From an uncultured Bdellovibrionales bacterium (GTDB lineage: Bacteria > Patescibacteriota > Minisyncoccia > Moranbacterales > UBA1568), in contig CAZTBI010000002.1 in assembly GCA_964612055.1 (NCBI GenBank), positions 163,529 to 227,528 of the forward strand: a stretch of 64,000 nucleotides of DNA, given 5' to 3'. A program made the translations under genes and the position numbers. Below are positions 1,546 to 18,238 of this stretch, in pieces. The notes under the pieces are model-generated. The model saw only the letters and a program-made list of their open reading frames with translations, was not told the DNA's origin and did no database searches. Within the stretch, counting starts at the first letter, position 1; each line of letters begins with the position of its first letter.

Positions 1546-1809
1546 ATGAATACATCCAAGCAAAAAATCGAACGACGCCTCAAGATCATTGCTGGCCAGG
1601 TGAGAGGGCTAGAGGAGATGGTGGCCAAAGATACCTACTGTATTGATGTCATCACCCAGACCTCGGCTGTGAAGCAGGCATTGACCGTGATCGAGGATCT
1701 CATGATGGAGAGTCATCTTAGTACGTGTGTGATCAATCAGATCAAGAATGGGAAAGAAGAAAAAGCCAAAGCAGAGATCTTGAAGGTCTATCAACTCAAG
1801 CGAAAATAA
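1546..1809 (+). CDS. csoR: CsoR/RcnR-family copper-sensing transcriptional repressor
   Basis: 87-aa all-helical protein with conserved Cys/His (YCIDV...ESHLSTC); heads a copA operon. Confidence 0.8.
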
Positions 1810-1814
1810 TACCT

Positions 1815-4118: not shown

Positions 4119-4122
4119 GTCT

Positions 4123-5142
4123 ATGAAAACTTACACTTTCCATGTTTCAGGCATGCACTGCCACTCGTGTATTCTCCTTACCGAGAGTGAGCTCTCAGAA
4201 TACCCAGGCGTGACCAAGGCGCACTCGAGTCTGAAGACACATTCAGTCACTATTACCGGTGATTTTGGTGACAAGGCGCCAGCCGCGATAGCCGAAGAGC
4301 TCAGTCAGGTACTACAGAAACATGGCTATACCCTTTCGCTCGAGAAACAGGAAACGAAAAAAGAATGGTCACAATTCAAAGTAGCCGTACCGCTAGCACT
4401 GCTTCTCGTCATACTGTTTATCGGTCTGCAGAAAACAGGGCTGGTCAATCTGGTGAATACTGATTCGGTTTCGTACGGGACAGTGTTTTTGATCGGGATC
4501 ATTGCGTCGCTCTCGACTTGTATGGCAGTGGTCGGTGGGCTGGTACTTTCTGTTTCGGCTACCTTTGCCAAGGAGGGGGACAAAGTGAAACCGCAGCTCC
4601 TCTTTCATGTCGGAAGACTTGTTTCCTTCTTTATCTTAGGTGGAGTGATTGGCGCTGTCGGTGCCAACTTTACCTTGAGTACGACGGCGACATTTGTGCT
4701 GAGTCTTCTCATCGGTCTCGTCATGCTCATTCTCGGTATCAACCTGCTTGATATTTTCCCGTGGGCCAAGCGTTTGCAGCCAGCCATGCCAAAATTTTTT
4801 TCGAAGCACGCGCTCGGAGTAGCTCGTTTCAATCACACGCTCACGCCACTCTTTATTGGTATTGCTACCTTCTTTCTGCCATGTGGCTTCACGCAGTCGA
4901 TGCAGCTCTATACACTCTCAACGGGGAGCTTCTTTTCGGGCGGACTGACAATGCTCACCTTTGCACTGGGGACACTGCCGGTCTTAGCACTTATTAGTTT
5001 CAGCTCCTTCAGCATAGAGCGCAGCGCCAAAAAGGGACTCTTCTTCAAAACCGCTGGTCTGATAGTGATCTTCTTCGCACTCTTCAATCTCGTAAATAGT
5101 CTGGTTGTTATCGGTCTCATTCCACCGATCTTTAATTTCTAA
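4123..5142 (+). CDS. HMA (heavy-metal-associated) domain fused to a polytopic DsbD_2/TauE-like membrane domain
   Basis: N-terminal GMHCHSC metal-binding fold, then about 8 TM helices with intramembrane Cys (LSTCMAV, FLPCGFTQ). Start moved to the ATG at 4123, 5 nt after the copA stop. Confidence 0.6.
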   Translation: MKTYTFHVSGMHCHSCILLTESELSEYPGVTKAHSSLKTHSVTITGDFGDKAPAAIAEELSQVLQKHGYTLSLEKQETKKEWSQFKVAVPLALLLVILFIGLQKTGLVNLVNTDSVSYGTVFLIGIIASLSTCMAVVGGLVLSVSATFAKEGDKVKPQLLFHVGRLVSFFILGGVIGAVGANFTLSTTATFVLSLLIGLVMLILGINLLDIFPWAKRLQPAMPKFFSKHALGVARFNHTLTPLFIGIATFFLPCGFTQSMQLYTLSTGSFFSGGLTMLTFALGTLPVLALISFSSFSIERSAKKGLFFKTAGLIVIFFALFNLVNSLVVIGLIPPIFNF

Positions 5143-5153
5143 GCTCTCGTTCT

Positions 5154-5555
5154 ATGAAAGTATTTTTTGGTTTCGTTGTCGTCCTCGTTCTTCTCATGGG
5201 TGGATATCTGGTGATGAATATTGCCGGAAAAGGAGAGGGTGAGGCGACTAATCCTCTGGTCGCGGCAAACAACGTCAGCATTGTTGATGGGAAACAGATT
5301 GTCGAAATCCGGGCCAAGGGAGGCTATCTCCCAAGAAAGAGTGTGGTGAAAGCTGGCATGCCAACTATCTTGCGGGTGAATACTGCTGGAACATTTGATT
5401 GTTCTTCAGCTATTCGGATTCCCAGTCTTAGGGTCAGTCAGACCCTACCGGCTACCGGTGTGACCGAGATCGAGCTCGGGAGTCTGGAGCCGGGAACGCT
5501 TCAGGGAAATTGCGGTATGGGCATGTACCCCTTTGAGATATCTGCTGAAAATTAA
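5154..5555 (+). CDS. Cupredoxin-like domain protein (membrane-anchored)
   Basis: N-terminal TM; C-terminal C...GNCGMGMY motif typical of small cupredoxin-like proteins found in cop operons. Confidence 0.5.
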   Translation: MKVFFGFVVVLVLLMGGYLVMNIAGKGEGEATNPLVAANNVSIVDGKQIVEIRAKGGYLPRKSVVKAGMPTILRVNTAGTFDCSSAIRIPSLRVSQTLPATGVTEIELGSLEPGTLQGNCGMGMYPFEISAEN

Positions 5556-5558
5556 AAC

Positions 5559-6062
5559 ATGAAATTCCTTCCTTATCTTATTTTTGGATTGGTGCTCCTC
5601 GCCGTGATGGAAGGGATAGTTTGGTTCGTTCTTCGTTCCGGTTCCGAAACTCCTTCGGACGTGCCGGTGGTCGAAGAGGTGTTGCCAGTAACCCAATTAC
5701 CAGTGACTCCGGCGACCAAGGAAGAAACGAAAGCGAACGTTGAGAGCGGAACTTTTCCGGAGCCGAGCGTAGAGGTAGTGAATGGCGTCACGGAACGGAC
5801 GATTCATATCGGGGTGCGGCAGTGGGAATGGGATCCCAAGGTCATCCGTGCCAAAGAAGGGGAGCGAGTCCGTCTCATCATTCACAATGCTGACGTGCGT
5901 CATACGCTGGTTGTTCCGGCACTTCAGATTGATATCGATATTCCACCCGATGGCGCAGTGGCGGATTTCATGGCCACGAAAAAAGGTACCTTTGATTTCC
6001 TCTGTGGCACCTACTGCGGTGTCGGACACGCGGAGATGCAGGGGACACTTGTGATAGAATAG
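5559..6062 (+). CDS. Cupredoxin-like domain protein (membrane-anchored), CuA-like CxxxCxxxH site
   Basis: N-terminal TM; FLCGTYCGVGHAEMQG resembles CuA/cupredoxin copper ligands. Confidence 0.55.
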   Translation: MKFLPYLIFGLVLLAVMEGIVWFVLRSGSETPSDVPVVEEVLPVTQLPVTPATKEETKANVESGTFPEPSVEVVNGVTERTIHIGVRQWEWDPKVIRAKEGERVRLIIHNADVRHTLVVPALQIDIDIPPDGAVADFMATKKGTFDFLCGTYCGVGHAEMQGTLVIE

Positions 6063-6083
6063 AGAAGATTTGAGATAAAAACT

Positions 6084-6593
6084 ATGGATATTTTGTCACA
6101 CGGGCTCTATGGGGGAGTGGCCTTTGGAAGGAAGAGCAAGAAAAGTTTCTGGTTGTCATTCTTTTTTGGTATCGCGCCGGATCTTTTCTCCTTTGGATTA
6201 TTTACGGCGAGTGTCTGGCTGGGGCTGACACATGGATTGGATTGGTCTGCTGGGCCACCTGACGAGAAGCTGATCCCGCAGTATGTCCATACGCTCTACA
6301 ATTTCACGCACAGTTTTGTTGTTTTTGCGGCTGCCTTTGGTGTGGTCTGGCTCATCCGTCGCAAGCCTTTGTGGGAAATGCTGGCATGGCCACTTCATAT
6401 TCTGGTTGATATTCCGACCCATTCGGACAGATTCTTTCCGACACCGTTTCTTTGGCCAGTTTCGGATTATCACGTGAACGGGCATCCCTGGAGTAGTCCC
6501 GAGATTTTTATTCCCAACGTCATTCTCATCATCAGTCTCTACCTTTGGTTCTATGTCATCAAACCATGGCGGAAACGGACAGGAAATTCCTAA
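6084..6593 (+). CDS. DUF457/YdjM-like membrane-bound metal-dependent hydrolase
   Basis: Starts MDILSHGLYG; conserved HILVDIPTH; multi-TM. Confidence 0.45.
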   Translation: MDILSHGLYGGVAFGRKSKKSFWLSFFFGIAPDLFSFGLFTASVWLGLTHGLDWSAGPPDEKLIPQYVHTLYNFTHSFVVFAAAFGVVWLIRRKPLWEMLAWPLHILVDIPTHSDRFFPTPFLWPVSDYHVNGHPWSSPEIFIPNVILIISLYLWFYVIKPWRKRTGNS

Positions 6594-6700: not shown

Positions 6701-7327
6701 ATGAAACACAAACAACATAAAAAAACAGAGTATCAAACACAAAAGCCTCTCTTCCAGGCTGCTTCTTTGTCTTCCATGACACTTTCGAGTGATGTCTTTT
6801 ATGGAGCCTTTCTTTCGCTCTCCTTTGTCGTTGCCACACTTCTTTTTGGTGCTGGTACTAGTCTCGCCAATGTAGAGATCGCTTTTCCAGAAAAAAGTCC
6901 TCGTCAGGTGGTCTTTGAGCACAAGATGCACAAGCTTGTTACTGGCTATCCGATCGAGGCTATGACACCCTATATCGACGAACAAGACGAAACGACCGCT
7001 GCTTATCTAGTGAGTATCGCTAAGAAAGAAAGTAACTGGGGCAAGCGTGTTCCTCGTGCCGAAGATGGTTCTGATTGTTACAATTACTGGGGCTATCGTG
7101 GGGCAGGGAGTCGTGGTATCGCCATGGGTCATGGTTGTTTCGGGAGTCCCGAAGAGGCTGTTGGCGTGGTTGGCGGACGACTCGATACCCTGGTTAATGA
7201 GTACCAGTTCCGTACCCCGGCCGAGATGGTGGTCTGGAAATGCGGCTTTAGCTGTGATGGCCATAGCGGCCAGAGCGTCAAAAAATGGATCACTGACGTG
7301 GGGTACTACTACAACAAAATGCAGTAA
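6701..7327 (+). CDS. Secreted protein, paralog A of a 3-member family with a GH73-like glucosaminidase signature
   Basis: N-terminal TM; IAKKESNWGKR ... CYNYWGYRG ... GHGCFGSPEEAV ... WKCGFSC; compare GH73 ESGWG / NNLFGIK. Four conserved Cys. Confidence 0.45.
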   Translation: MKHKQHKKTEYQTQKPLFQAASLSSMTLSSDVFYGAFLSLSFVVATLLFGAGTSLANVEIAFPEKSPRQVVFEHKMHKLVTGYPIEAMTPYIDEQDETTAAYLVSIAKKESNWGKRVPRAEDGSDCYNYWGYRGAGSRGIAMGHGCFGSPEEAVGVVGGRLDTLVNEYQFRTPAEMVVWKCGFSCDGHSGQSVKKWITDVGYYYNKMQ

Positions 7328-7330
7328 TCT
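7273..7330. repeat. 58-bp direct repeat, copy 1 (3' end of paralog A including the TAA stop)
   Basis: Exact 58/58 identity with 8533-8590. Confidence 0.9.
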
Positions 7331-7339
7331 TCTCTGAAA

Positions 7340-7364
7340 CGACCGATTGAAAACCGGTCGTTTT
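7340..7364 (+). terminator. Intrinsic terminator (cgaccg-N9-cggtcg-TTTT)
   Basis: Perfect 6-bp stem plus T-run immediately after repeat copy 1. Confidence 0.5.
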
Positions 7365-7369
7365 CTGTA

Positions 7370-7398
7370 TTGACAAAGAGCCTTTTTCGCTCTAGAGT
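7370..7398 (+). promoter_or_regulatory. Sigma70-like promoter TTGACA-N17-TAGAGT driving the inserted GC-rich gene
   Basis: Hexamers read directly; RBS AAGGAG lies 7 nt before the ATG at 7443. Confidence 0.4.
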
Positions 7399-7442
7399 GC
7401 CTCCAGATCAATCCTGATCTTTTCCTTCACAAGGAGACTTCC

Positions 7443-8459
7443 ATGAAGTCCATATCAATAGCAGCAGGACTGTTTCTGGTTGCTTTCTCCGTAGTGGCGG
7501 CGGAAGTGGCTTGTCCGGAACTCACGGCGCCCCAGCGTGTCGCCGGATACCTTTCCTGGATGGGATTTTTCCAGGTCATTGGTGTTACCACTTTGACCGC
7601 CGGCGTGATGTATGTCTTTCGGGGCGTACTGACAGTGATCTGGGGTAGGTTGTGGGCTGTCATTCGCGACATCGCCGACGTACTGGCTCACGTGTTCAGT
7701 CTCGGGCTCGTTGTGGTTGGCGCCTGGGTGCCAGAAGAATACCGCCTGTGGCCAGTGCTCGGCGGGTGCCTCCTCTTCGCGGGGAGCGTCTTCCTCACTA
7801 TCTGGCTACGCAAGTTGAAGGGCGACAGTCCGGCTGGCATATACGGCCTCCTGACGTTCGTGTGGGGGTGTGTTGCGCTCTACTATGGAATGCCTGAAGT
7901 TGGGTTCATAGCGGTGGCCGCTCTCATGGGTCTTCTCGGCTACTCCATCGTCGTCACGCCGTTTTGTTACGGCTTTGGCTTCCGTGATGAACCAACCATG
8001 GTACGGACCACCAGTGCAGCACTCGTGATCCTGGTGTTCTACTCAGTGGCCCAGCTTTTTCCGTCAACTGTTCCGGCACTGCCAGCGGTGTTTGCTACCG
8101 GAGCGTTCTGGCTCGGTTCTTTGGTCGCTTTCACGGGCCTCCTCATCGTTTCGAACAAGCTGTACTTTCAGGAGAAGAAGGATTCCACCTACATGTGGAT
8201 GCAGGCAGTGACCCTTCTGGTCTACCTCGGCGGCACTGCCTACGGCATGATCTTCGGCATCAATGCGCTTGCGGGGATGGCGGGCACCTTCCTGGTGCTC
8301 TACGCCGCCGCCAAGCTGGTGGAGGTCGAAACGAATGGTTACATCACCTTCGGGCTCAAGCTCATGGCCATCGGCGGAATCTTCGCCGGAGCCTGGTGGT
8401 ACGCGACGGCGCATCAGGAAGTGGTCATGAAGTACCTGACCACGACGCTGCCGGTCTAG
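7443..8459 (+). CDS. GC-rich polytopic membrane protein, unknown function (about 10 TM)
   Basis: 338-aa ORF with strongly G/C-biased third positions, unlike the flanking genes; hydrophobic throughout; no recognisable motif. Confidence 0.6.
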   Translation: MKSISIAAGLFLVAFSVVAAEVACPELTAPQRVAGYLSWMGFFQVIGVTTLTAGVMYVFRGVLTVIWGRLWAVIRDIADVLAHVFSLGLVVVGAWVPEEYRLWPVLGGCLLFAGSVFLTIWLRKLKGDSPAGIYGLLTFVWGCVALYYGMPEVGFIAVAALMGLLGYSIVVTPFCYGFGFRDEPTMVRTTSAALVILVFYSVAQLFPSTVPALPAVFATGAFWLGSLVAFTGLLIVSNKLYFQEKKDSTYMWMQAVTLLVYLGGTAYGMIFGINALAGMAGTFLVLYAAAKLVEVETNGYITFGLKLMAIGGIFAGAWWYATAHQEVVMKYLTTTLPV

Positions 8460-8478
8460 GCTGCGCTAAGCAGCGACA

Positions 8479-8514
8479 AGGTTTCTTGTGAGATATCTCG
8501 CGAGGAACCTTTTT
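8479..8514 (+). terminator. Intrinsic terminator after the inserted gene (aggtt...aacct + TTTT)
   Basis: Inverted repeat with inner palindrome gagatatctc, followed by T-run. Confidence 0.4.
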
Positions 8515-8532
8515 CTTTTGTGCAGGAGAGGG

Positions 8533-8590
8533 GAGCGTCAAAAAATGGATCACTGACGTGGGGTACTACTACAACAAAATGCAGTAATCT
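8533..8590. repeat. 58-bp direct repeat, copy 2 (non-coding remnant)
   Basis: Exact copy of 7273-7330. Confidence 0.9.
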
Positions 8591-8615
8591 CCCTCTATAG
8601 ATGGATAATTCCCAA

Positions 8616-8641
8616 AGACTGTCACAAAAGACAGTCTTTTT
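8616..8641 (+). terminator. Intrinsic terminator (agactgtc-acaaaa-gacagtct-TTTTT), probably the original terminator of paralog A
   Basis: Perfect 8-bp stem plus T5 directly after repeat copy 2. Confidence 0.55.
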
Positions 8642-8739
8642 CGTTATTATTATGTTTGACCAAACGTCAAAAATGTGTTATTTTTAGATGCGCTAAAAAG
8701 GAGTTTTTAGGAAGTTACTTTAGCCAAACTTTGTTCTAA

Positions 8740-10125
8740 ATGAGGAAACACACACTCTACAAAAAAGATGACTTTAAGTTGAAGCATCGAGCGGTCATTC
8801 ATTTCATTGTCGCTGCCATTTTCCTTATATTTATAGGAAAATCTTTTTTTGTTGAGTCTGATTACTTCTTACTTTATATTTACGGCGTATTAGTTACGCT
8901 TGTGCTCGGTATCAACTTTTACGTTGCTATTTTTCGATATGAAGACCCTGCAGTCTTGGCTGGGAAAATAGAGCAGAAGAAACGTGACAGGGGAGCGAAG
9001 ATTGAAGAACCATTCGTAAGTTTCATGGTTGCTGTGTATAACGAAGAAGTTGTTATAGAACAATGCATACTTTCTCTACTTGATCAGACGTATCAAAACA
9101 GAGAAATTATATTTGTGAATGATGGCAGTACCGATGGAACAGCCAAGATTCTGGATGACTATGCTCGCTTAGGAAAAATCAAGGTCATTCACCAGAAAAA
9201 TTCTGGAAAGAAGAGAGCATTAGGGAGGGCTATGAGAGAAGCAAAAGGAAATATATTTGCTTTTTCAGATAGCGACTCTGTCTGGGCAATTGATGCTATT
9301 GAAAGAATAGTCCCTATTTTTAATGTCTTTCCAGATGTGGGGGGGGTAAGCGGTCATTTCCGACTTAAGAATTCTTTGGTCAATATACTTACTAAGGCTC
9401 AAGACTCTTGGGCTGAAGGACAGTTCGCTATTCGTAAAGCCTTCGAGAGTTATTATGGATCTGTTTCTTGTATTTCTGGCCCACTAGCTGTTTTTCGAAA
9501 AGAAGCCATCTACAACTTTATTCCAGCATGGGAGCAAGATAGGTTTCTTGGACAAGAATTTAAATTTGCAACCGACCGCACCCTAACGGGATTCTTGTTA
9601 GGAAACAAGTATATTAGTAAAGATCTAAAAACAAAATATGCAGATGATGATTGCGTGAAGCAGGTTGATTATCCAGAATGTGATTGGCAGGTAGTATACG
9701 CAAAGTCTGCTAAATCCTGGACTATTCTTCCTGAAACCTTTAAGGGAATAGTTAAGCAACAAGTTCGATGGAAGAAGAGCTTTATTAGGAATACTTTCTT
9801 TACAGGTTCTTTCTACTGGCGGAAACCATTTCCTGCTGCTCTTGTGTACTATCTTCATGTACTGTTTGTTCTTTTCGGTCCAATCGTTGCTTTTCGTCAT
9901 CTTGTTTATCTTCCGCTGCACGGTGACCCATGGTCTATCGTTTTGTATCTAGGAGGAATTATATTTGTGGGGTTTATGTTTGGTTTTGCATATAAATTAG
10001 AAAACAGAGATTCGCATCTATGGATATACCGACCTATAATGAGTCTTCTTTCAACCGTTGTTTTATCTGGGCTTATCTATTATTCAGCTCTAACGATTAG
10101 AAAAATGGTATGGCATCGAGGATAA
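8740..10125 (+). CDS. Processive family-2 glycosyltransferase (NodC / hyaluronan / chitin-synthase-like)
   Basis: TM helices at both ends; VYNEE...DQTY; DGSTDGT; DSD; QQVRWKKS (QxxRW). The gene is strongly AT-rich. Confidence 0.8.
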   Translation: MRKHTLYKKDDFKLKHRAVIHFIVAAIFLIFIGKSFFVESDYFLLYIYGVLVTLVLGINFYVAIFRYEDPAVLAGKIEQKKRDRGAKIEEPFVSFMVAVYNEEVVIEQCILSLLDQTYQNREIIFVNDGSTDGTAKILDDYARLGKIKVIHQKNSGKKRALGRAMREAKGNIFAFSDSDSVWAIDAIERIVPIFNVFPDVGGVSGHFRLKNSLVNILTKAQDSWAEGQFAIRKAFESYYGSVSCISGPLAVFRKEAIYNFIPAWEQDRFLGQEFKFATDRTLTGFLLGNKYISKDLKTKYADDDCVKQVDYPECDWQVVYAKSAKSWTILPETFKGIVKQQVRWKKSFIRNTFFTGSFYWRKPFPAALVYYLHVLFVLFGPIVAFRHLVYLPLHGDPWSIVLYLGGIIFVGFMFGFAYKLENRDSHLWIYRPIMSLLSTVVLSGLIYYSALTIRKMVWHRG

Positions 10126-11615
10126 CCCTAGGAAGAATATGGCTTTTTGTTCTTCCAATAAGCATATTCTTTGGAACATTTTTTACGCTGTTTAGCCTAG
10201 AACGTTCACAGCCATTTGTTTATGATGAAGCGGTCTATTTGACGAAGGCGCGAGCATGGCAGATAAATTCGCCTGCAGATGAATTTAGAATCTACAGGCC
10301 GGTTGGTATGCCTGTAATAGGAAGGGCATTATTAGAGTTTGGTAATTCTGAAGCTCATCTTCGATTTTTCGGTGTGTTTTTTGGAGCGAGTACCATACTG
10401 CTTCTCTATTTGATTTTTACAAGAATATTTGGCTGGTTAGTGGGGGTATCTGTATCATTAGTGACGACTTCATCATCATTGTTCTTGTATAATGCACCTC
10501 AATTTTTGAATGATGTTCCGTCGTCCGGTCTCCTGTTCGGATCTCTGATTGCAGTTTGGATATGGCATGAGTCGAAAGGGAATAGTAATTGGATCTATTT
10601 ATTTGGGCCATTTTCGGCAGCAGCATTTTATTTACGATACGGAGCTTCGAGTACTCTAGTGTTGATAGCGATAGTCTCCGTTTTTGTGTTCTGGAATAGC
10701 ATAAGGACGGGGGTTAAAGATTTTGAGAAAACTATTCTTTCCGGTATCTTCTCGATTTTTCTGTTTGCCCCACATTTCATACAGTCAGTTGTTGTTACGC
10801 ACGATGTGTTAGGGATATTGAAGCGAAGTGGTGGGGCAGCGGGAAGAGAATATCTAGGGGAGGGTCTTTTAAGATATATTCAATGGCTCCCTCACGATCT
10901 GGGGGGTTGGTTATTTGGTACGCTAGCTATTTTCGGAATTCTTACCACATTCTATTTACTTCTCAGAAAAAATTGGACAGAACAACATAGAGGGTTAGCG
11001 TGGATTGGATTAATTGGCGTTTCGAATCTTATTTTAACAGGAGTCTTGGTTCATGCGGAACCAAGATACGTATTTTTTTCAGTGACTCTTCTTTGTGGCG
11101 TAGGTACTGCTAGTATTTTTTTGATACTCTCGAAATTTCAAACATCGAAGTTTTTTGTTGCAACATTTTTCTTTGTGGCTTCAGTGATTTCTGGTTACTT
11201 TAATTATTACGATGTTAATGCGGCTTTAGGCGATAAGGCAAATGGCGTAAGAGAATTTTATGTTGACGCTGCATCAGCAATACGTAACGATATTTCTTCT
11301 GGAAAAGACTGCGCGATATGGTCTGCATCATCTCGTCCTGAGTTGTCATGGTATGCTGGCTGCCATACGATTTCGATTGATACAAAAGAGGCTTTTGTTA
11401 AGGACTTTCTTACTAATTTTAGAAGACCATGCTACAGTGTTGTTTTTTCAAAGTTAGGAGAAAAGCAACTTGATGAGAACGTCGCTAAAGAGTTTGGCAT
11501 TGAATTATCAGAGATATTTCGCGCAAAGACATCGCAATCATTGGGGGATATTGTTGTGTATAGACTAACAGATCAAGGAAAGATCAGGCTTCAGGCCGTA
11601 ACCGAAAAAGAATGA
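10110..11615 (+). CDS. GT-C fold membrane glycosyltransferase (PMT_2/ArnT-like), about 12 TM
   Basis: Polytopic; early loop motif VYDEAVYLTKARAW resembles the DE motif of PMT/ArnT enzymes; AT-rich. Confidence 0.45.
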   Translation: MASRITLGRIWLFVLPISIFFGTFFTLFSLERSQPFVYDEAVYLTKARAWQINSPADEFRIYRPVGMPVIGRALLEFGNSEAHLRFFGVFFGASTILLLYLIFTRIFGWLVGVSVSLVTTSSSLFLYNAPQFLNDVPSSGLLFGSLIAVWIWHESKGNSNWIYLFGPFSAAAFYLRYGASSTLVLIAIVSVFVFWNSIRTGVKDFEKTILSGIFSIFLFAPHFIQSVVVTHDVLGILKRSGGAAGREYLGEGLLRYIQWLPHDLGGWLFGTLAIFGILTTFYLLLRKNWTEQHRGLAWIGLIGVSNLILTGVLVHAEPRYVFFSVTLLCGVGTASIFLILSKFQTSKFFVATFFFVASVISGYFNYYDVNAALGDKANGVREFYVDAASAIRNDISSGKDCAIWSASSRPELSWYAGCHTISIDTKEAFVKDFLTNFRRPCYSVVFSKLGEKQLDENVAKEFGIELSEIFRAKTSQSLGDIVVYRLTDQGKIRLQAVTEKE

Positions 11616-11632
11616 ATTTATAAGCTATTCTT

Positions 11633-13249
11633 ATGCAACATGAATATGGCCCTAAAAGTTATAGGAGGATAGAGATGGTCTTCTTTGTTCTGGCTGTTTT
11701 TGTTTTTATTATCATTTCAGCGAAGTATTTCTCTTCCCCGTCTGGCGGTAGCATTTTGACACATACAAAGGATGCTATTTTGAAAAAGATGAATGCGTAT
11801 TATCTTGAAAAATCATCTAATGATATTGTGTCGCAACAATCTCTAATACTCAAAATTAGTGATGATGGCCGGTGGAGGATCTTTAATGTTGATGGAAGCG
11901 AATCAGATCTATATTCTGTAGAGAATCTTGATGGAAAAATTTTGATTTATGGATTAAAAAAAGGAGTTGCTCAAGATTTATATGTTGACGGGGTGCGAAG
12001 CTACTTCACTAGATCTGAAATGGTCAGTACGGACATACCTCACGATGTTATAAATGGTGACACTTTTCTTGTTCCAGAGCAGGAAGATCTTTTCCCTATT
12101 TTTGGATACCACAATATCTTTGATAGAGAGGAGGATATCAGAGATCCGTATCTGGATATCAGGAAGAGCGATTTTGAGAGGCAGGTACAGGTGTACAATC
12201 ATGAAATTAATTGCCGATGGGCGACTCTTCGTGAGGTTGTTGAAAATTTTATTCTAGTAAATAAGAAATTACCTAGGAATGTATGTGTAATGACTTTTGA
12301 TGATGGAAGGAAGAATAATTATGAAATAGCATTTCCAATTCTTAAGGAAAATGGTATTCGCGCTACATTTTATATTATTTTTGGCCGACTAGGGAGCGGT
12401 ATATACATGACTAAGAATGAGGTAGCTGAATTGTTTCGTGCTGGAAATGAAATGGGTTCGCATACTATGACAGGCGGAAGCCTGGTTGATACAAGCTGGT
12501 TTACTGGTGAATTTACTGATAACGAGCTTAAGAATCAACTCCAAGACTCTAAGGAGATTTCTGAGGTATACTCTTATAACTCTAGAACTTTTGCCTATCC
12601 ACTTGGAGATTGGAATGATAAAGTTGTTACTGCTATCAAAGATGCTGGATATATTGCTGCTCGTGATACTGAGAAGGATGAACAATGGAGAGATCACCGC
12701 GCATTAGCAATAAGTGCAACAGAGGATTTTATATGGCATTTGAATTATTATAAGCCGGAGCTTCGTTTTGATGATGAGATATATCAAAATATGCGCTATA
12801 GCGGTTGGTGGCAGTTCGAAGAAGGCAACCTTGTTTCCGGAGATGAAAATGGAAATGTTTTAATTAAACATGACGTTGATATTCCTAATCAGGGCTACGG
12901 GGTTGTTGTACTCGTAGATCCGAATGATTCAAATAGGAATGTGTTTCTTTTAGAACAAGATGGCCAGTACGTTATAGATATGTTACTTGCAAAAGATCAA
13001 TCGAAAAATATCGATCCATCAGTTTTTATTGATGGTATTAATCTGCCGATTCAGAAGGATGATTCACAAACTTGCACTACACAGGGCAAGGGCGTCTATT
13101 GCCATTATACGATTGAAGCTAGTCTTTCACAGGGCAGGCACACTTTGGATATTATTAATAATAGTGGAATAATGAAACTAGATCGTTTCCGCATTTATAG
13201 ACGCGCTTTAGTGGAGCAAGAATACAAGTTAACAATAACGAAGGATTAA
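11633..13249 (+). CDS. Polysaccharide deacetylase (CE4/NodB homology domain) with N-terminal TM and extra C-terminal domain
   Basis: VCVMTFDDGRKNNYEIAFPILKENGIRATFYI (TFDDG motif); HTMTGGS; AT-rich. Confidence 0.75.
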   Translation: MQHEYGPKSYRRIEMVFFVLAVFVFIIISAKYFSSPSGGSILTHTKDAILKKMNAYYLEKSSNDIVSQQSLILKISDDGRWRIFNVDGSESDLYSVENLDGKILIYGLKKGVAQDLYVDGVRSYFTRSEMVSTDIPHDVINGDTFLVPEQEDLFPIFGYHNIFDREEDIRDPYLDIRKSDFERQVQVYNHEINCRWATLREVVENFILVNKKLPRNVCVMTFDDGRKNNYEIAFPILKENGIRATFYIIFGRLGSGIYMTKNEVAELFRAGNEMGSHTMTGGSLVDTSWFTGEFTDNELKNQLQDSKEISEVYSYNSRTFAYPLGDWNDKVVTAIKDAGYIAARDTEKDEQWRDHRALAISATEDFIWHLNYYKPELRFDDEIYQNMRYSGWWQFEEGNLVSGDENGNVLIKHDVDIPNQGYGVVVLVDPNDSNRNVFLLEQDGQYVIDMLLAKDQSKNIDPSVFIDGINLPIQKDDSQTCTTQGKGVYCHYTIEASLSQGRHTLDIINNSGIMKLDRFRIYRRALVEQEYKLTITKD

Positions 13250-13258
13250 TTTTTTCTA

Positions 13259-14224
13259 ATGAAAAAAAACGCAAAGATTTTTTTAGGAACGGTAATTTTA
13301 ATAGTTGTTGTTTTTTTGTATCAAAAATTCAATTCTCAAGAAGAAGCTAGCCAGACTCAAGGTATGAATGTTTCAGTTTCAGCTAACAACGCAATAGTTC
13401 TTAATCAGGATACCTCAATTAATAGTCAGATAGATGGGGATGGGTTAACAGGATTAAGTATTCTTGACCAAGAATCCAGTAAGACTGAATTCAGCGAGGA
13501 TTTCTCTAGGGATGCTCTTCTTGTAGAAACCGGCTCAATGAATGAGAGTGTTTCTGCGAATTGGTGGCTCAATTCTGGAGCATACCTCTCTATTAGTAAG
13601 GGTCTTGGCGAAACTGTTCAAGGAGAGCTTTCTAAACAGGATGAATGGAGGATAAAATATAAAGATTACAATTCTAGCGAAACCGATGACGGGTATCATC
13701 CACAAAACATCTTCAGGCTTGTAACAAGATATCAGTGGAAGAATTTTCTTCAGGAAAGTTATTTTAAAATTAATCGCTATATTCTTAGCCAAGACAAGGC
13801 TCGGAGTGAGTCAAATGGCCTGCTTCTTTTTAACCGATACCAAGATGGTGACAACCTCTATTATACGGGGCTCAGGGTTGATGGTACTGTTGTTATAAAA
13901 AAGAAAGTTAAGGGAATATACTACACGATGGCTCAGGAGCCTCTCTATCCGGGGAAGTATGATAGAAAGAGTAAGCCGAATCTTCTACCCATTGAAGCCT
14001 GGATAGGATTACAGAGTGAGGTACGAGATAATCCCAACGGAACTGTCTCTATAAAAGTGTACCGAGATAAAGATCGCTCTGGAGACTGGCAGCTTATTTT
14101 GACTGCGATAGACGATGGAAAAAAATACGGGGGAGCGGCTATAAAAAATGAAGGATACGCTGGTATCCGAACGGACTTCATGGATGTCGAGTTTGATGAC
14201 TACAAAATTGAGGAGTTGAAGTAG
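13259..14224 (+). CDS. Secreted/anchored protein, unknown function; possibly a beta-sandwich carbohydrate-binding protein
   Basis: N-terminal TM; no catalytic motif recognised; last gene of the AT-rich block. Confidence 0.5.
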   Translation: MKKNAKIFLGTVILIVVVFLYQKFNSQEEASQTQGMNVSVSANNAIVLNQDTSINSQIDGDGLTGLSILDQESSKTEFSEDFSRDALLVETGSMNESVSANWWLNSGAYLSISKGLGETVQGELSKQDEWRIKYKDYNSSETDDGYHPQNIFRLVTRYQWKNFLQESYFKINRYILSQDKARSESNGLLLFNRYQDGDNLYYTGLRVDGTVVIKKKVKGIYYTMAQEPLYPGKYDRKSKPNLLPIEAWIGLQSEVRDNPNGTVSIKVYRDKDRSGDWQLILTAIDDGKKYGGAAIKNEGYAGIRTDFMDVEFDDYKIEELK

Positions 14225-14312
14225 GTCAATCTCCCGATTGACAGAACTAGCATTTCCTTGTACAATACACTATCATTCTTTTACGGTAACCCATTCTTGA
14301 GAATGGGGTTTT

Positions 14313-16640
14313 ATGAGTTCTGGGGAGTGCAATACAGTAGGAACATCTATGAACAACAAGGTTTACAAAAAAAAGAAGGCTTCCAATAGTTCTCGCAGGA
14401 GACAGTGGGGGACTGAGCGTGAGAGAGCGCCGCTTTCGAGTATTCACGATCAACCTTCGGGTTATTCTATTGTCTTTAGTCGGGTGGCTATTGTCCTGAC
14501 GGTGGTTTTTTGGGCGATGTACGTGACGTCAGTGGTTATTCGTCAGCTGATTGATGGTCCAAAAAGCTACCAGTTTACTATGGAAGTGCTCGGTTATCTG
14601 ACCGTCACGACCTTTCTGACCTTTTCAGCCCTTGTCTACCTGATTGCCAGGCAAGGGGCACTGCAGCGTTTCAGTAAACACGTGCGTGTCCCTCGGGCGG
14701 TCATCGACAGACATTTCTCTTCTCAGCAGTCATCTATTACGATGCTCATCCCTTCCTATAGTGAAGAGACCGAGGTAGTGCGCAAGACGGTACTTTCCGC
14801 GGCACTGCAGGAATATCCTGATATGCGTGTCGTTCTCTTGCTCGATGACGAGCCTTTCAAGGTGCGTCCTGAGAATAGGAAGCGACTGGAAGCGACGCGT
14901 GCTATCGGAGAGGAAATCGAAATGCTTCTCTCCAAGCCCTCTGAGCGTTTTCGTGAGGCTTTGGAAGAGTTCGAGGCTACCAGCCTGAAAACTGGCACCG
15001 TGACTTTAAATACGGTACCGAAAATAGCGGATCATTATCTGTGGGCAGCCGCTTGGCTCAATCGGTTAGCAGAGAAAGAGGTGATCGAGGACCATGTCGA
15101 TACCTTTTTCGCTGATCAGGTACTGCGTGAACTGGCCAAGGATCTTTCCTTGGTCGGGGAGGCGCTTTTGGTGTCACACAAAGAGGGGGTGCGTTTTTCA
15201 TTGGAGCGTCTCCTTCAGCTCTACCACAGACTGGTCTGGATCTTTGGTGTTCGGGTAGAAGTCTTCGAAAGAAAGAGGTACATCTCTTTGTCGCATGAGC
15301 CGAATAAGGCGATGAACCTCAATTCGTATATCGGACTGATGGGTGGTATGTATCGGCAAGAGCAGACACCGGATGGAATTGTCTTGGTGCCAACCAAGAG
15401 TCAGCGCAGCGCTGACATGATTATCCCTGATAGCGAATTTGTCCTGACGCTCGATGCGGACTCTATTTTGCTCCGCGAGTACTGTCTCCGCTTGGTCTAT
15501 TTCTTGGAGCAACCTGACAATGCTGATGTGGCGGTAGCGCAAACCCCATACTCTTCATTTCGTGGTGCGCCAACTCGTATCGAACGGCTCTCTGGAGCAA
15601 CGACCGATATCCAACACATTATTCACCAGGGGATGAGTCACTACGGTGCTACCTTTTGGGTTGGGGCGAACGCCGTGATCCGCAAGCGTGCCCTGGAAGA
15701 TATCGTAGAAAAAGAATGGGTGGGAGGATTTGAGATAAAGCGTTACGTACAGGACCGTACTGTTATCGAAGATACCGAATCAAGTATCGATTTGGCACTC
15801 CGTGGTTGGAGACTGGTCAACTATCCGGAACGTTTGAGCTATAGTGCGACGCCACCAGACTTTGGCTCCCTCGTCATTCAGCGTCGCCGTTGGGCCAATG
15901 GCGGACTTTTGATACTCCCGAAACTGTGGTCGCTCATGCGAGAACGCAAACATGCGGGTAAGCCCATATCGAAAGTGACCTTCATGATCCGCTTGAACTA
16001 TATGGCGTCCATTGCCTGGTCAAACTTTGGCTTACTCTTTCTCTTGGCCTATCCCTATGACGGACGTCTGCTTAGTCCACTGGTGCTTCTCGCAGCGATG
16101 CCGTATTTCGTCGCTATGGCGATCGATCTCAAGTACTGCCGATATAACTACAGTGACATCATTCGTATTTACGGTTTCAATTTGATTCTCCTGCCGGTGA
16201 ACATTGCTGGAACGCTCAAGTCATTGGAGCAGGCTCTCACCACAAAAAAGACACCTTTTGCCAGAACGCCAAAAGTAAAGGATCGAACATCCGTGGCTTT
16301 GCCGTATGTCCTCTCGCCAGTGCTCATTGTCGGTTTTTCACTCTTTACCCTCTGGCGCAATATTCAGGGCGAAAACTGGGGGAACGCAGCGGCTGCTGGT
16401 TTCAATGCTTTTGCAGCTACCTGGGCTATCTTTTCGTATATCGGACTGAAGAATATGTTTGTTGATATCTGGCTCGGACTGACAGATATGCTCTACGTCG
16501 ATGTTCCTGCCCAAAAGTCTTCCCAAAAACCAGTTGATGATGAGGCTGAATTTAATTGGAAAGGCGTACTGTACCATGGGGAAGTCAACGCGACCGTACC
16601 ACATGAATCGGTCACTGAGATGATACTCAATAAAAAGTAG
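14313..16640 (+). CDS. Cellulose-synthase-like processive GT2 (BcsA/CesA family); no PilZ domain evident
   Basis: ITMLIPSYSEE; DADS; TEDTESSIDLALRGW; QRRRWANGGL; TM helices on both sides of the catalytic domain. Confidence 0.8.
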   Translation: MSSGECNTVGTSMNNKVYKKKKASNSSRRRQWGTERERAPLSSIHDQPSGYSIVFSRVAIVLTVVFWAMYVTSVVIRQLIDGPKSYQFTMEVLGYLTVTTFLTFSALVYLIARQGALQRFSKHVRVPRAVIDRHFSSQQSSITMLIPSYSEETEVVRKTVLSAALQEYPDMRVVLLLDDEPFKVRPENRKRLEATRAIGEEIEMLLSKPSERFREALEEFEATSLKTGTVTLNTVPKIADHYLWAAAWLNRLAEKEVIEDHVDTFFADQVLRELAKDLSLVGEALLVSHKEGVRFSLERLLQLYHRLVWIFGVRVEVFERKRYISLSHEPNKAMNLNSYIGLMGGMYRQEQTPDGIVLVPTKSQRSADMIIPDSEFVLTLDADSILLREYCLRLVYFLEQPDNADVAVAQTPYSSFRGAPTRIERLSGATTDIQHIIHQGMSHYGATFWVGANAVIRKRALEDIVEKEWVGGFEIKRYVQDRTVIEDTESSIDLALRGWRLVNYPERLSYSATPPDFGSLVIQRRRWANGGLLILPKLWSLMRERKHAGKPISKVTFMIRLNYMASIAWSNFGLLFLLAYPYDGRLLSPLVLLAAMPYFVAMAIDLKYCRYNYSDIIRIYGFNLILLPVNIAGTLKSLEQALTTKKTPFARTPKVKDRTSVALPYVLSPVLIVGFSLFTLWRNIQGENWGNAAAAGFNAFAATWAIFSYIGLKNMFVDIWLGLTDMLYVDVPAQKSSQKPVDDEAEFNWKGVLYHGEVNATVPHESVTEMILNKK

Positions 16641-16648
16641 CACCACTT

Positions 16649-18238
16649 ATGAAAGAGTCACGAACCGAAAAAAATATCGTTCATACTGAGTCAAGGAGAC
16701 GGCTTTCCCCTTGGCGAGTTTTACTCGCTTTTTTGGTACTCGGTGGAGTGGCCTACGGTACCACGCTTGGTGTGGATCGGTGGCGAGAAACCGAATCGAC
16801 CACTGTCTACGAACCCTGGTTTGCGGCCTATGTCGATGTGACCTCGACTCCGGAGTATCCTTTTGAACAATTAGGATCAACGGCAACGCCAGATGCGATA
16901 CTTTCTTTCATTGTTTCTTCGAAGACTGAAGCTTGTACGCCAACTTGGGGAACGCACTACACGATGGATAAAGCAGGGATCGCCCTTGATCTCGATCGGC
17001 GCATTGCCAGGCTGGAACAGCAAGGAGGGAGAGTCGCCATATCTTTCGGTGGAGCGATCAACTCGGAGCTTGCCATTTTGTGCCAAGATCATGATGCGCT
17101 GCTTAGTGCTTACGATTCTGTCTTACAACGGTACAACGTCGATACTATAGATCTGGATATTGAAGGTGAAAGTCTGAAAGATACTGAAGCATCAAAACGT
17201 CGTGCTGATGTCATAGCCAAACTCCAGAAACAGTATCGAGAGAGTGGGAAAAATCTGGCCGTGTGGTTGACGCTGCCGGTCGCTCCAAGTGGTCTCGCTC
17301 CAGAAGGGGCGAATGCGGTAGCGCAAATGCTCTCAAGTGGCGTCGACTTAGCCGGAGTGAATGTGATGACTATGGACTATGGTGCTAGTCGAGGAGAGGG
17401 GCAGGGGATGCTCGATGCTTCGACGAGTGCTTTGATTGAGACGCACCGTCAATTAGGAGTTCTCTACAAGCAAGCCGGTATCAGTCTCAATAGTAATTCG
17501 TTGTGGCGAAAAATTGGAGCCACGCCCATGATTGGTCAAAATGATGTGGTGGATGAGGTATTTACTCTGGACGATGCCAAAGGATTCAATGTTTTTTCTT
17601 TGAATCAGGGTGTGGGTCGTATGTCGATGTGGTCAGCCAATCGCGATACTCCCTGTGGAGAAAACTATGTCGATGTGAAAGTGGTTTCTGATTCTTGCAG
17701 TGGTGTGAAGTCAGCGAAGTTTAGTTTTTCTCAGGCGTTGGGAAGTGACTTCAATGGTGATCTGACCCAGAGTGCTTATATTTCAACCACAGAAGATCCT
17801 GAAAGCAACGTCACTATTATCGATAACCCAGAGACGAGCCCGTACCAAATCTGGCAAGAAGTAGGTGCTTATCCAAAAGGCGTGAAGGTGGTATGGCACG
17901 GCAATGTCTATGAAGCAAAGTGGTGGACGAAAAATGACTTGCCTGACAATCCAGTGCTTCAATCATTTGAGACGCCGTGGCAGTTAGTCGGACCAGTGTT
18001 GGTAGATGAGAAGCCTATTGAGCAACCAAAGTTGCCAGCAGGTACTTACAAGCAGTGGTCTGGAGAAACGGTCTATCAAGGTGGTGATCGAGTTCTCTTT
18101 GAAGGTGTGCCTTTTCAGGCTAAGTGGTGGAATCAGGGTGATAGTCCAGCTGCTTCAGCTGCCAACTCAGACGCCTCGCCGTGGATTGCTCTGACGCAGG
18201 CGCAGATTGTCGATATCCTCGAAGAGTTGAAGAAGTAA
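16649..18238 (+). CDS. GH18 chitinase-like hydrolase with two C-terminal CBM5/12 carbohydrate-binding modules, membrane-anchored
   Basis: DTIDLDIEGE = DxxDxDxE catalytic motif; two WW-type modules (VVWHGNVYEAKWWTKND; YQGGDRVLFEGVPFQAKWWNQGDSP). Confidence 0.75.
   Translation: MKESRTEKNIVHTESRRRLSPWRVLLAFLVLGGVAYGTTLGVDRWRETESTTVYEPWFAAYVDVTSTPEYPFEQLGSTATPDAILSFIVSSKTEACTPTWGTHYTMDKAGIALDLDRRIARLEQQGGRVAISFGGAINSELAILCQDHDALLSAYDSVLQRYNVDTIDLDIEGESLKDTEASKRRADVIAKLQKQYRESGKNLAVWLTLPVAPSGLAPEGANAVAQMLSSGVDLAGVNVMTMDYGASRGEGQGMLDASTSALIETHRQLGVLYKQAGISLNSNSLWRKIGATPMIGQNDVVDEVFTLDDAKGFNVFSLNQGVGRMSMWSANRDTPCGENYVDVKVVSDSCSGVKSAKFSFSQALGSDFNGDLTQSAYISTTEDPESNVTIIDNPETSPYQIWQEVGAYPKGVKVVWHGNVYEAKWWTKNDLPDNPVLQSFETPWQLVGPVLVDEKPIEQPKLPAGTYKQWSGETVYQGGDRVLFEGVPFQAKWWNQGDSPAASAANSDASPWIALTQAQIVDILEELKK

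Follow-up and report, generated by a model that had tools for sequence, protein, structure and literature searches.

A mobile hyaluronan-synthase-like cassette inserted beside a conserved GT2-GH18 gene pair in a Patescibacteria genome

A run of six open reading frames (ORFs), all on the + strand, occupies positions 8740-18238 of a 64,000-nt stretch of DNA, here called the window (contig CAZTBI010000002.1, positions 163,529-227,528; assembly GCA_964612055.1; all coordinates below are window positions). The genes encode, in order, a processive family 2 glycosyltransferase (GT2a), a membrane glycosyltransferase of the C type (GT-C), a carbohydrate esterase of family 4 (CE4), a ConA-like β-sandwich protein, a second processive family 2 glycosyltransferase (GT2b) and a family 18 glycoside hydrolase (GH18) with two carbohydrate-binding modules (CBM5/12). 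A preliminary description had taken them for one composite exopolysaccharide locus. Its six genes agreed exactly with the ORF list, and its domain assignments were confirmed by Pfam for the GT2, PMT_2, CE4 and both CBM5/12 domains and, for GH18, by a match to 9buf despite a sub-threshold Pfam score. Apart from one (TED, see below), the motifs that it had listed were all present in the sequence, as QQVRW, YDE, TFDDG, QRRRW and DTIDLDIE. The question raised by the locus is whether the six genes constitute a single system acting on one polymer, or whether two systems with different histories have come to lie side by side.

The explanation preferred here, to which we assign a probability of about 0.6, is that the region consists of two separate synthase-dependent surface-polysaccharide modules, an imported one at 8740-14224 and a native one at 14313-18238. 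It draws on direct observation of gene content, motifs, folds, an insertion and the conservation of both modules. Loci of this kind, synthase-dependent exopolysaccharide modules, are known, as are all of the gene families; what is new here is the presence of an ArnT-fold GT-C and a CE4 with a degenerate metal site within a mobile hyaluronan-synthase-like cassette. The relatives compared with the window are designated by L-numbers (contigs or loci), and single homologous proteins by P-numbers. Named homologues of the backbone and cassette genes came from metagenome-assembled genomes of Patescibacteria, or candidate phyla radiation (CPR), bacteria (Moranbacteria, Parcubacteria, Paceibacterota, Saccharibacteria, Portnoybacteria, Minisyncoccia), in accord with the small-genome origin suggested earlier; a few of the labels were evidently mis-binned.

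Insertion of an AT-rich four-gene operon

The first four genes (8740-14224, the cassette) had a GC content of 0.386 compared with 0.485 in the rest of the window, so the AT-richness noted earlier survived computation. Five 1-kb windows within the cassette had values of 0.368-0.404 (z = -3.3 to -4.7), and the minimum of the 58 outside windows was 0.447, above all five. The GC content at third codon positions (GC3) was 0.32-0.37 in the four cassette genes and 0.41-0.57 in most backbone genes. The four genes are tightly packed, either overlapping or 9-17 nt apart.

The relative L019 is syntenic with the window backbone, with the same pseudouridine synthase, Cu-ATPase, HMA/DsbD2, cupredoxin, unk208, GT2b and GH18 genes (GT2b 78% identical), and in L019 unk208 is directly joined by GT2b with nothing between them. 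In the window and its 91-97% identical relatives L001, L002, L014 and L015, two insertions lie between unk208 and GT2b, a 1.2-kb high-GC segment and the 5.6-kb AT-rich four-gene operon. The gene order GT2a, GT-C, CE4, ConA-like was kept in L005 and L007 (GT-C identity 45-53%), and L006 (GT-C 36% identical) carries GT2a, GT-C and CE4 followed by the end of the contig. These three cassettes sit in unrelated neighbourhoods. The core GT2a-CE4(-ConA-like) arrangement also recurs in L018, L020, L022, L029-L032 and L035.

The base composition of the relatives bears on the source of the cassette. The GC content of cassette and flank was 0.386 and 0.485 in the window, 0.347 and 0.447 in L005, and 0.399 and 0.486 in L007; thus the cassette deviated in all three hosts near 45-50% GC, and matched its host where the host was low-GC or high-GC (L006, which is low-GC, L003 and L013). 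AT-richness as a property of the gene families themselves was rejected on these grounds. Since the cassette is AT-rich in three neighbourhoods and host-like in the low-GC L006, it appears to have moved from low-GC Patescibacteria donors.

A genomic island is recognised by an unusual composition, by being missing from a syntenic relative and by its occurrence in unrelated contexts. All of these were found here, and the AT-rich island of the preliminary description proved to be an insertion that is missing from L019 and is AT-rich in two other host contexts. The segment 8740-14224 is therefore a horizontally acquired, mobile Patescibacteria operon inserted between unk208 and GT2b. The Pfam scan of the window covered 44 ORFs, about 20 further ORFs of at least 150 aa, mostly overlapping or opposite-strand frames, lying outside it; no integrase or transposase domain was found among the ORFs scanned, and the island had no tRNA target and no convincing flanking repeat.

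Nearby, at 7273-7330 and 8533-8590, lies a perfect 58-nt direct repeat that corresponds to the 3' end and stop codon of the ORF at 6701-7327 (unk208). It flanks the insert 7331-8532, with a GC content of 0.565, and not the AT-rich cassette. This high-GC insert, also missing from L019, contains an ORF at 7443-8459 encoding 338 aa with approximately 9-10 transmembrane helices, no Pfam match and a GC3 of 0.72, and, at 8478-8511, a strong terminator-like hairpin. The insert resembles the result of a second integration event at this position, independent of that of the cassette.

In L018 (4236-9480), an AT-rich cassette lies directly downstream of a GT2b-GH18 pair (GT2b 83% identical), with a GC content of 0.37-0.38 compared with 0.50-0.53 for the pair. 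Its genes encode a GT2a-type synthase, a CE4 with H-x4-H, an unrelated 418-aa secreted protein and a ConA-like homologue. To judge from the sequence, the L018 cassette is an independent second insertion beside the same pair.

Two promoter-like sites, both consensus matches only, were located on the + strand. The first (8656..8684; TTGACC-17-TATTTT with TG upstream) precedes the cassette in an AT-rich leader and is 3' of terminator-like hairpins at 8478-8511 and 8614-8639. The second (14238..14266; TTGACA-17-TACAAT, matching 11 of 12 consensus positions) is just 3' of the cassette and ahead of the GT2b-GH18 genes. It is followed, before the first ATG of the 775-aa GT2b ORF, by a hairpin at 14290-14307 (CCCATTCT/AGAATGGG) with TTTT. 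The segment 14238-14312 could serve as a regulatory leader of the native pair.

These arrangements bear on the possibility that the six genes are one integrated system, all acting on a single chitin- or chitosan-like sheath, with the cassette recruited to modify the GT2b polymer. Several observations fit such a system, 1) the six genes run in one direction at short intervals, 2) all of the extracytoplasmic proteins are membrane-anchored, 3) a related AT-rich GT2a-CE4-...-ConA-like cassette was independently placed beside the pair, on its other side, in L018, and 4) both GT2s have weak chitin-synthase Pfam matches, and CE4, GH18 and CBM5/12 are all GlcNAc (N-acetylglucosamine)-directed families. 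The distribution of the genes argues otherwise. L017, L019 and L100 have the pair but no cassette, and L005, L007, L006 and L003 the cassette but no pair; each module thus occurs without the other, so they are mostly unlinked. Moreover, the modules are set apart by a terminator-like hairpin and a second promoter-like site, two complete synthases would be redundant for one polymer, and the UDP-glucose dehydrogenase genes linked to relatives of the cassette (see below) point to a different, acidic polymer. A single six-gene system is consequently judged unlikely, and the composite system proposed earlier gives way to two modules with separate histories, although the L018 arrangement leaves room for some functional or positional affinity between them.

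Proteins of the imported cassette

GT2a (8740..10125, + strand; GC 0.385, GC3 0.33) was classified by Pfam and PDB alignment as a 461-aa membrane-embedded processive GT2 of the class I hyaluronan synthase (HAS)/NodC/chitin synthase type. The score was 111 bits for PF00535 and 31.9 bits for Chitin_synth_2, the latter a partial match that did not reach the full-domain gathering score. Two N-terminal and three C-terminal transmembrane helices were predicted (residues 19-37, 47-65, 367-385, 399-417 and 433-451). GT2a aligned with Xenopus HAS1 (8smm) and Chlorella-virus HAS (7sp7) across the signature motifs, SCISGPLAVFR in GT2a corresponding to SCISGPLGMYR in HAS, ATDRTLT to GDDRHLT, and QQVRWKKSFIR to QQTRWTKSYFR; it also carries NDGS and DSD. 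All of the features of a class I HAS-like enzyme were thus present (D, DxD, the catalytic Asp, QxxRW followed by KS, SGPL..(Y/F)R and transmembrane helices at both ends), and the processive GT2 of the preliminary description has its D, D, D, QxxRW set complete at the sequence level.

The enzyme shares with the class I HAS operons (streptococcal hasA and hasB; structures 7sp6 and 8smm) the membrane-embedded architecture, SGPL..(Y/F)R, the (G/T)DDR-type Asp and QQxRWxKS. The overall similarity was low, with an E value of approximately 1e-14. In hasAB a UDP-glucose dehydrogenase gene lies beside the synthase, and a comparable gene was found directly upstream of relatives of GT2a; the window cassette does not have one. 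In seven of 26 loci whose GT2a-type synthase scored 200 bits or more, a dehydrogenase gene immediately precedes the synthase (246-546 bits or by Pfam; L003, L006, L024, L033, L035, L036 and L038), and L023 gave a weak match. CE4 was 3' of the synthase in 15 of the 26, and a ConA-like homologue was linked in 9. The has-operon-like linkage suggests a polymer containing a uronic acid, glucuronic acid (GlcA), in those relatives, and there it points away from the plain GlcNAc polymer predicted earlier. To our knowledge no has operon carries a CE4, GT-C or ConA-like partner.

The pairing of a QxxRW GT2 with an extracytoplasmic or membrane-associated CE4 is also found in NodC/NodB, PgaC/PgaB and IcaA/IcaB, and the preliminary description had appealed to the logic of these poly-N-acetylglucosamine and Nod-factor systems. 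The best NCBIfam matches were indeed PgaC/IcaA and NodC for GT2a and IcaB for CE4, but all were far below the curated cut-offs: GT2a scored 136.6 bits against the PgaC/IcaA equivalog TIGR03937 (cut-off 422.3, N-terminal half only) and 102.3 bits against the NodC equivalog TIGR04242 (cut-off 550), and CE4 scored 52 bits against IcaB (cut-off 248). Membership in those families was accordingly abandoned. Unlike the NodC, PgaC and IcaA systems, the cassette has no PgaD/IcaD and no GH153 domain, its CE4 does not have the second His, and a GT-C has been added. In minimal bacteria (GT2 synthases of Mycoplasma, PMC11658790; compare Cps3S and Cps3D of pneumococcal type 3), a capsule is made by a single membrane GT2 synthase, sometimes with a UDP-glucose dehydrogenase. 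The genes of these capsule systems move horizontally and can be phase-variable; unlike the cassette, the systems have no extracytoplasmic CE4, GT-C or lectin-like partners.

A G8 homopolymer (9339..9346, + strand), found in a homopolymer scan, lies inside GT2a in the codons V-G-G-V; no other run of G or C in the 64 kb reaches seven. In L001, a 97% identical sister contig, the tract is G7 (at approximately 9230), and GT2a is broken into two ORFs by the frameshift. L005, L006, L007 and L020 encode an identical or nearly identical peptide without the tract. The G8 tract may be a slipped-strand, on/off (phase-variation) switch for the cassette.

GT-C (10110..11615, + strand), which starts 16 nt before the end of GT2a, is a 501-aa ArnT-fold (PMT_2) protein, by Pfam and an AlphaFold2 (AF2) model, with about 12 transmembrane helices and a C-terminal extracytoplasmic α/β domain. 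It scored 35.2 bits against PF13231 (PMT_2), above the gathering score of 26.1, and the model had a predicted local distance difference test score (pLDDT) of 83 and a predicted template-modelling score (pTM) of 0.82. Its best solved matches were to ArnT (5f15 and 5ezm; template-modelling scores 0.62-0.66), one of the types named for comparison in the preliminary description, followed by ALG9/ALG12, OST/PglB and AftA. In an alignment of 19 members, D39 in loop 1 was conserved in at least 90% and E40 strongly conserved, and R63, D135, R176, H315, E317 and Y320, the last three in a HAExRY block, were invariant or nearly so. With its Pfam score, multi-helix membrane fold and acidic motif in the first extracytoplasmic loop, GT-C has the properties of an ArnT/PMT_2-type transferase, and its sequence is consistent with an active enzyme.

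The GT-C family has few members: when 1.84 billion representatives were searched exhaustively with a profile, the yield was approximately 16 close clusters, 229 proteins with E values of 1e-30 or lower and 1095 with E values of 1e-3 or lower. The gene was within 5 kb of a GT2a-type synthase in seven of nine independent contexts, L010 and L011 being the exceptions. In one close homologue (P0261, 780 aa), a C-terminal β-sandwich shares homology (E 3e-20) with the C-terminal domain of the CE4 of the L003 cassette, so that the two enzymes share a putative substrate-binding module. In P0377 (878 aa), from a high-GC organism, a DPM1/GtrB-like GT2 is fused to a GT-C of the wider family. DPM1/GtrB-like GT2s are the usual makers of polyprenyl-phosphate-sugar donors, and GT-C is predicted to use such a donor. 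It would then transfer, outside the membrane, either a sugar from polyprenyl phosphate onto a polymer or a polymer onto an acceptor.

Other combinations of these enzymes were seen in L017 (16064-20631) and L005 (3131-7959), where a GH8 endoglucanase-type hydrolase accompanies a processive GT2 and a PMT_2 GT-C, with the GT-C and GH8 fused in a single 881-aa protein in L005. At least two further Patescibacteria loci thus couple a GT2 synthase with a GT-C.

A GT2, a CE4 and an ArnT-fold GT-C in one operon are the same three enzyme superfamilies as in the Arn pathway (ArnC, ArnD, ArnT; compare GtrB/GtrC, CsbB/YfhO and PpgS/Rv3779), and ArnT is the best structural match of GT-C. The cassette could accordingly be read as a lipid-carrier route in which GT2a makes a polyprenyl-phosphate-linked GlcNAc or short oligosaccharide, CE4 deacetylates it and GT-C passes the amino sugar on to a lipid, a polymer of the wall or a protein, altering the surface charge. 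The fusion in P0377 and the stand-alone GT-C genes of L010 and L011 fit this route as well. The details of the first two enzymes do not. GT2a is of the processive synthase type, with QxxRW, SGPL..FR and two plus three transmembrane helices, none of which are found in ArnC, GtrB and DPM1 enzymes, and it scored only 24.4 bits against the ArnC model PRK10714 (cut-off 529). ArnD works on the membrane's cytoplasmic side, whereas the catalytic domain of the cassette CE4 is predicted to face outward. In addition, most GT2a-CE4 cassettes have no GT-C, and neither ArnA/ArnB-like sugar-nucleotide genes nor small flippase genes were found among the window ORFs scanned. An Arn-like route is for these reasons considered quite improbable.

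CE4 (11633..13249, + strand) is a 538-aa membrane-anchored deacetylase with a NodB-homology domain (PF01522, 75.2 bits), one N-terminal transmembrane helix and extra domains at approximately residues 40-150 and 380-538. The best PDB match was 6dq3. It keeps TFDDG, with the catalytic-base Asp, and AYPLG, and MTFDDGR was found in 14 of 15 relatives.

The last cassette gene (13259..14224, + strand) encodes a 321-aa membrane-anchored protein, assigned from an AF2 model (pLDDT 86) and Foldseek, with a transmembrane helix (residues 3-25), a disordered linker (30-70) and a ConA-like β-sandwich (75-321). It had been described as a secreted β-rich protein; the β-rich character was borne out, but the protein is anchored by its N-terminal helix. 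There was no Pfam match and no PDB sequence match. The top Foldseek matches were CBM66, a galectin-like protein, DUF1080/3-keto-glycoside hydratases, GH16 and PL14. The family has 1552 homologues, the named ones from Patescibacteria, and a stand-alone member in L016; an alignment of 35 members had 43 invariant columns, with R, K, D, Y or W in many. No relation to the C-terminal domain of the window CE4 or to the P0261 extension was found by hhalign. The modelled fold suggests a glycan-binding or glycan-cleaving module.

The native GT2b-GH18 pair and the rest of the window

GT2b (14313..16640, + strand; GC 0.497) is a 775-aa ORF encoding a BcsA-like processive GT2 (PF13632, 127 bits). Its homologues start at M13 (position 14349), 36 nt or 12 codons later (P0141, 763 aa), and an exact look-up of the 775-aa ORF gave no match, the public gene calls also starting 12 codons later. 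The catalytic core aligned with BcsA (4hg6 and 5ej1; E 1e-14), with the motifs LDADS, IED and QRRRW; the second had been reported as TED. No PilZ domain was found by Pfam, as stated in the preliminary description. The cellulose-synthase-like assignment made there holds for the catalytic core and not for the family as a whole, the score against the BcsA equivalog TIGR03030 being 84.8 bits with a cut-off of 699.1. The Chitin_synth_2 score of 24.3 was below the gathering score. There were more than 5000 homologues, the best 120 of which were 65-100% identical (65-83% outside the same species), several of them labelled Patescibacteria.

The adjacent gene (16649..18238, + strand) encodes a chitinase-type GH18 hydrolase, assigned by PDB and Pfam matches, with a membrane anchor (residues 24-42), a catalytic domain and two C-terminal CBM5/12 modules. 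Residues 53-369 matched 'Exochitinase 1' (9buf; E 1.7e-48) and the Pyrococcus chitinase 2dsk (E 1e-22), the Pfam score for GH18 being 25.7, below the gathering score of 29.6. The catalytic motif DTIDLDIE is intact, and the corresponding D/N-T-I/L-D-L-D-I/L-E was found in L017, L018 and L019. The CBM5/12 match (PF02839, 47.5 bits compared with a gathering score of 26.2) extended over two stretches and was related to the module of chitinase C (2d49). The protein thus combines DxxDxDxE with a domain homologous to characterised chitinases, and the earlier account of an anchored GH18 enzyme with an intact active-site motif and two CBM5/12 modules was upheld.

A GH18/CBM5/12 gene was directly 3' of GT2b in all four of the other lineages compared (GT2b identity 75% in L017, 83% in L018, 78% in L019 and 65% in L100), with gaps of 0-12 nt or overlaps. 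The sequences indicate that the two genes are a native, vertically inherited unit. The pairing of a synthase with a cognate hydrolase, such as BcsA with BcsZ, is the rule in synthase-dependent systems, and the hydrolase reports the polymer. Catalysis by GH18 enzymes is substrate-assisted by the 2-acetamido group. Because the hydrolase reports the polymer and GH18 needs a 2-acetamido sugar, the polymer made by GT2b is predicted, by analogy with such systems, to be chitin-like and rich in β-1,4-GlcNAc. We know of no chitin shown in Patescibacteria, and no polymer of this kind was documented for them in the literature searched.

GT2b resembles BcsA/BcsZ and the Gram-positive ccsZABHI (PMC7710045) in having a BcsA core (D, DxD, ED, QRRRW) with an anchored glycoside hydrolase. 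Unlike those systems it is accompanied by neither PilZ, BcsB nor CcsB and has an insertion of about 190 residues in the glycosyltransferase domain, and the neighbouring hydrolase is a GH18 with CBM5/12 modules, which are chitin-directed, rather than GH8 or GH5 as in cellulose systems. CcsB, the Gram-positive cellulose partner, was considered as a counterpart of GT-C and rejected, as it is a two-helix CBM11-like membrane protein. With the eukaryotic-type association of chitin synthase, chitinase and deacetylase, and with the few bacterial chitin synthases gained by horizontal gene transfer (PMC5122149), the locus shares QRRRW, a GH18 partner, chitin-binding modules and a CE4 elsewhere in the locus. 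However, neither GT2 reaches the full-domain Chitin_synth_2 gathering score, and neither is a division-1 chitin synthase like those of proteobacteria (PMC5122149).

A catabolic or predatory role for the hydrolase, directed at environmental chitin or a host surface, would make its adjacency to GT2b incidental and leave GT2b to make an unrelated β-glucan. GH18 with CBM5/12 is the classic architecture of a secreted chitinase, the best solved homologues are chitinases and the catalytic core of GT2b is closest to the cellulose synthase BcsA. On the other hand, the tight adjacency to GT2b was kept in four other lineages as GT2b identity fell from 83% to 65%, the enzyme is membrane-anchored and not free, no genes for chitin uptake or GlcNAc catabolism were found nearby among the window ORFs scanned, and a synthase with its cognate hydrolase is usual in synthase-dependent systems. 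The catabolic interpretation is distinctly unlikely, and a native synthase-hydrolase module is preferred.

Elsewhere the window encodes a Cu-ATPase, cupredoxin, DsbD, SUF, PFOR, an archaeal-type IMP cyclohydrolase and a giant Laminin_G_3 protein, and this remainder is in keeping with a reduced, monoderm-type CPR genome. Neither an Rfam family nor a tRNA was found in the window. The giant protein (37572-41156; 1194 aa) has five Laminin_G_3 (ConA-like) repeats and a match to a clostridial-neurotoxin-type receptor-binding domain, and is a candidate large surface adhesin of a putative epibiont. The copper cluster at 1725-6593 (Cu-ATPase, HMA-DsbD2, cupredoxins) varies among close relatives; L001 has a gene for a 544-aa multicopper oxidase (2376-4010) between those for the ATPase and HMA-DsbD2 that is missing from the window.

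Proposed scheme and its meaning

The two modules suggest the following scheme, in which the polymer chemistry, the acceptor of GT-C, the activity of CE4 and phase variation are predictions. In the native module, GT2b, as a BcsA-type synthase-translocase, would polymerise and export a β-linked glycan, which the co-transcribed, anchored GH18 with its two chitin-binding modules would trim or release. In the imported module, GT2a would polymerise a GlcNAc-containing chain from UDP-sugars and thread it through its own transmembrane channel; in relatives with an adjacent UDP-glucose dehydrogenase the chain is probably of the GlcA-GlcNAc type. Outside the membrane the chain would meet three anchored proteins: CE4, which would de-N-acetylate it or, with its degenerate metal site, perhaps merely bind it; the ArnT-fold GT-C, which would add a sugar from a polyprenyl-phosphate donor or join the polymer to an envelope acceptor; and the ConA-like protein, which would bind or cleave it. 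The G8 tract may turn the whole cassette on and off.

Several points weigh against this scheme or the independence of the two modules. The products of the enzymes are predictions from the genes. No UDP-glucose dehydrogenase was found in the window cassette or among the 44 ORFs scanned with Pfam, so GlcA is not established for the window polymer. GT-C lies away from any synthase in L010 and L011, and it is missing from many GT2a-CE4 cassettes (L018, L020, L022), which makes it an accessory component. By Foldseek the ConA-like protein could be a lectin as well as a lyase or hydrolase. The difference between G7 and G8 could stem from faulty assembly, GH18 could serve chitin scavenging, and the related cassette beside the same pair in L018 suggests that the modules may not be fully independent.

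A further point concerns CE4, which does not have the complete Asp-His-His triad. Its motif 2 reads GSHTMTGG, the second metal-binding His being replaced by a Gly that aligns with the His of 6dq3, 7bly and 8hfa, so canonical metal-dependent deacetylation cannot be assumed. Of the polysaccharide deacetylase described earlier, TFDDG therefore stands and the full set of metal ligands does not, so that the refuting condition set there for CE4, a domain without its metal ligands, applies in part. The replacement was common to all five members of the clade (window, L005, L006, L007 and L022), and a PgaB-like H-x4-H was retained in 8 of 10 more distant cassette CE4s. As the loss is stable across members that are 36-73% identical, the gene is not decaying.

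A fuller proposal is that a Patescibacteria-wide chitin-like polymer is made by GT2b and the GH18/CBM5/12 protein, and that a phase-variable cassette exchanged between lineages builds a de-N-acetylated, possibly glycosaminoglycan-like polymer, with GT-C glycosylating or anchoring the synthase-made polymer. This combination is offered tentatively and is rather doubtful as a whole. The gene combination was not described in the literature searched (chitin or cellulose synthase or GH18 in Patescibacteria, CPR or Saccharibacteria; HAS with CE4 and GT-C), nor was a GT-C that glycosylates or anchors a synthase-made polymer found there.

Patescibacteria represent a large share of bacterial diversity and live mostly attached to other cells, and their envelope is almost uncharacterised. 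Even if the proposed chemistry fails, the locus is a clean island insertion in a CPR genome, and the mobility of the cassette shows an exchange of surface glycans among reduced genomes. The cassette is also a naturally occurring coupling of a processive GT2 synthase to an ArnT-like GT-C, and would widen the range of synthase-dependent pathways if the polymer is what GT-C acts on. The conserved GT2b-GH18 pair suggests that Patescibacteria may make a chitin-like polymer, and is a concrete candidate for the source of a major surface polymer of the group. If this is true, a widespread bacterial chitin synthase-chitinase system would be known for the first time, and its product would be a candidate material for epibiont attachment or a sheath.

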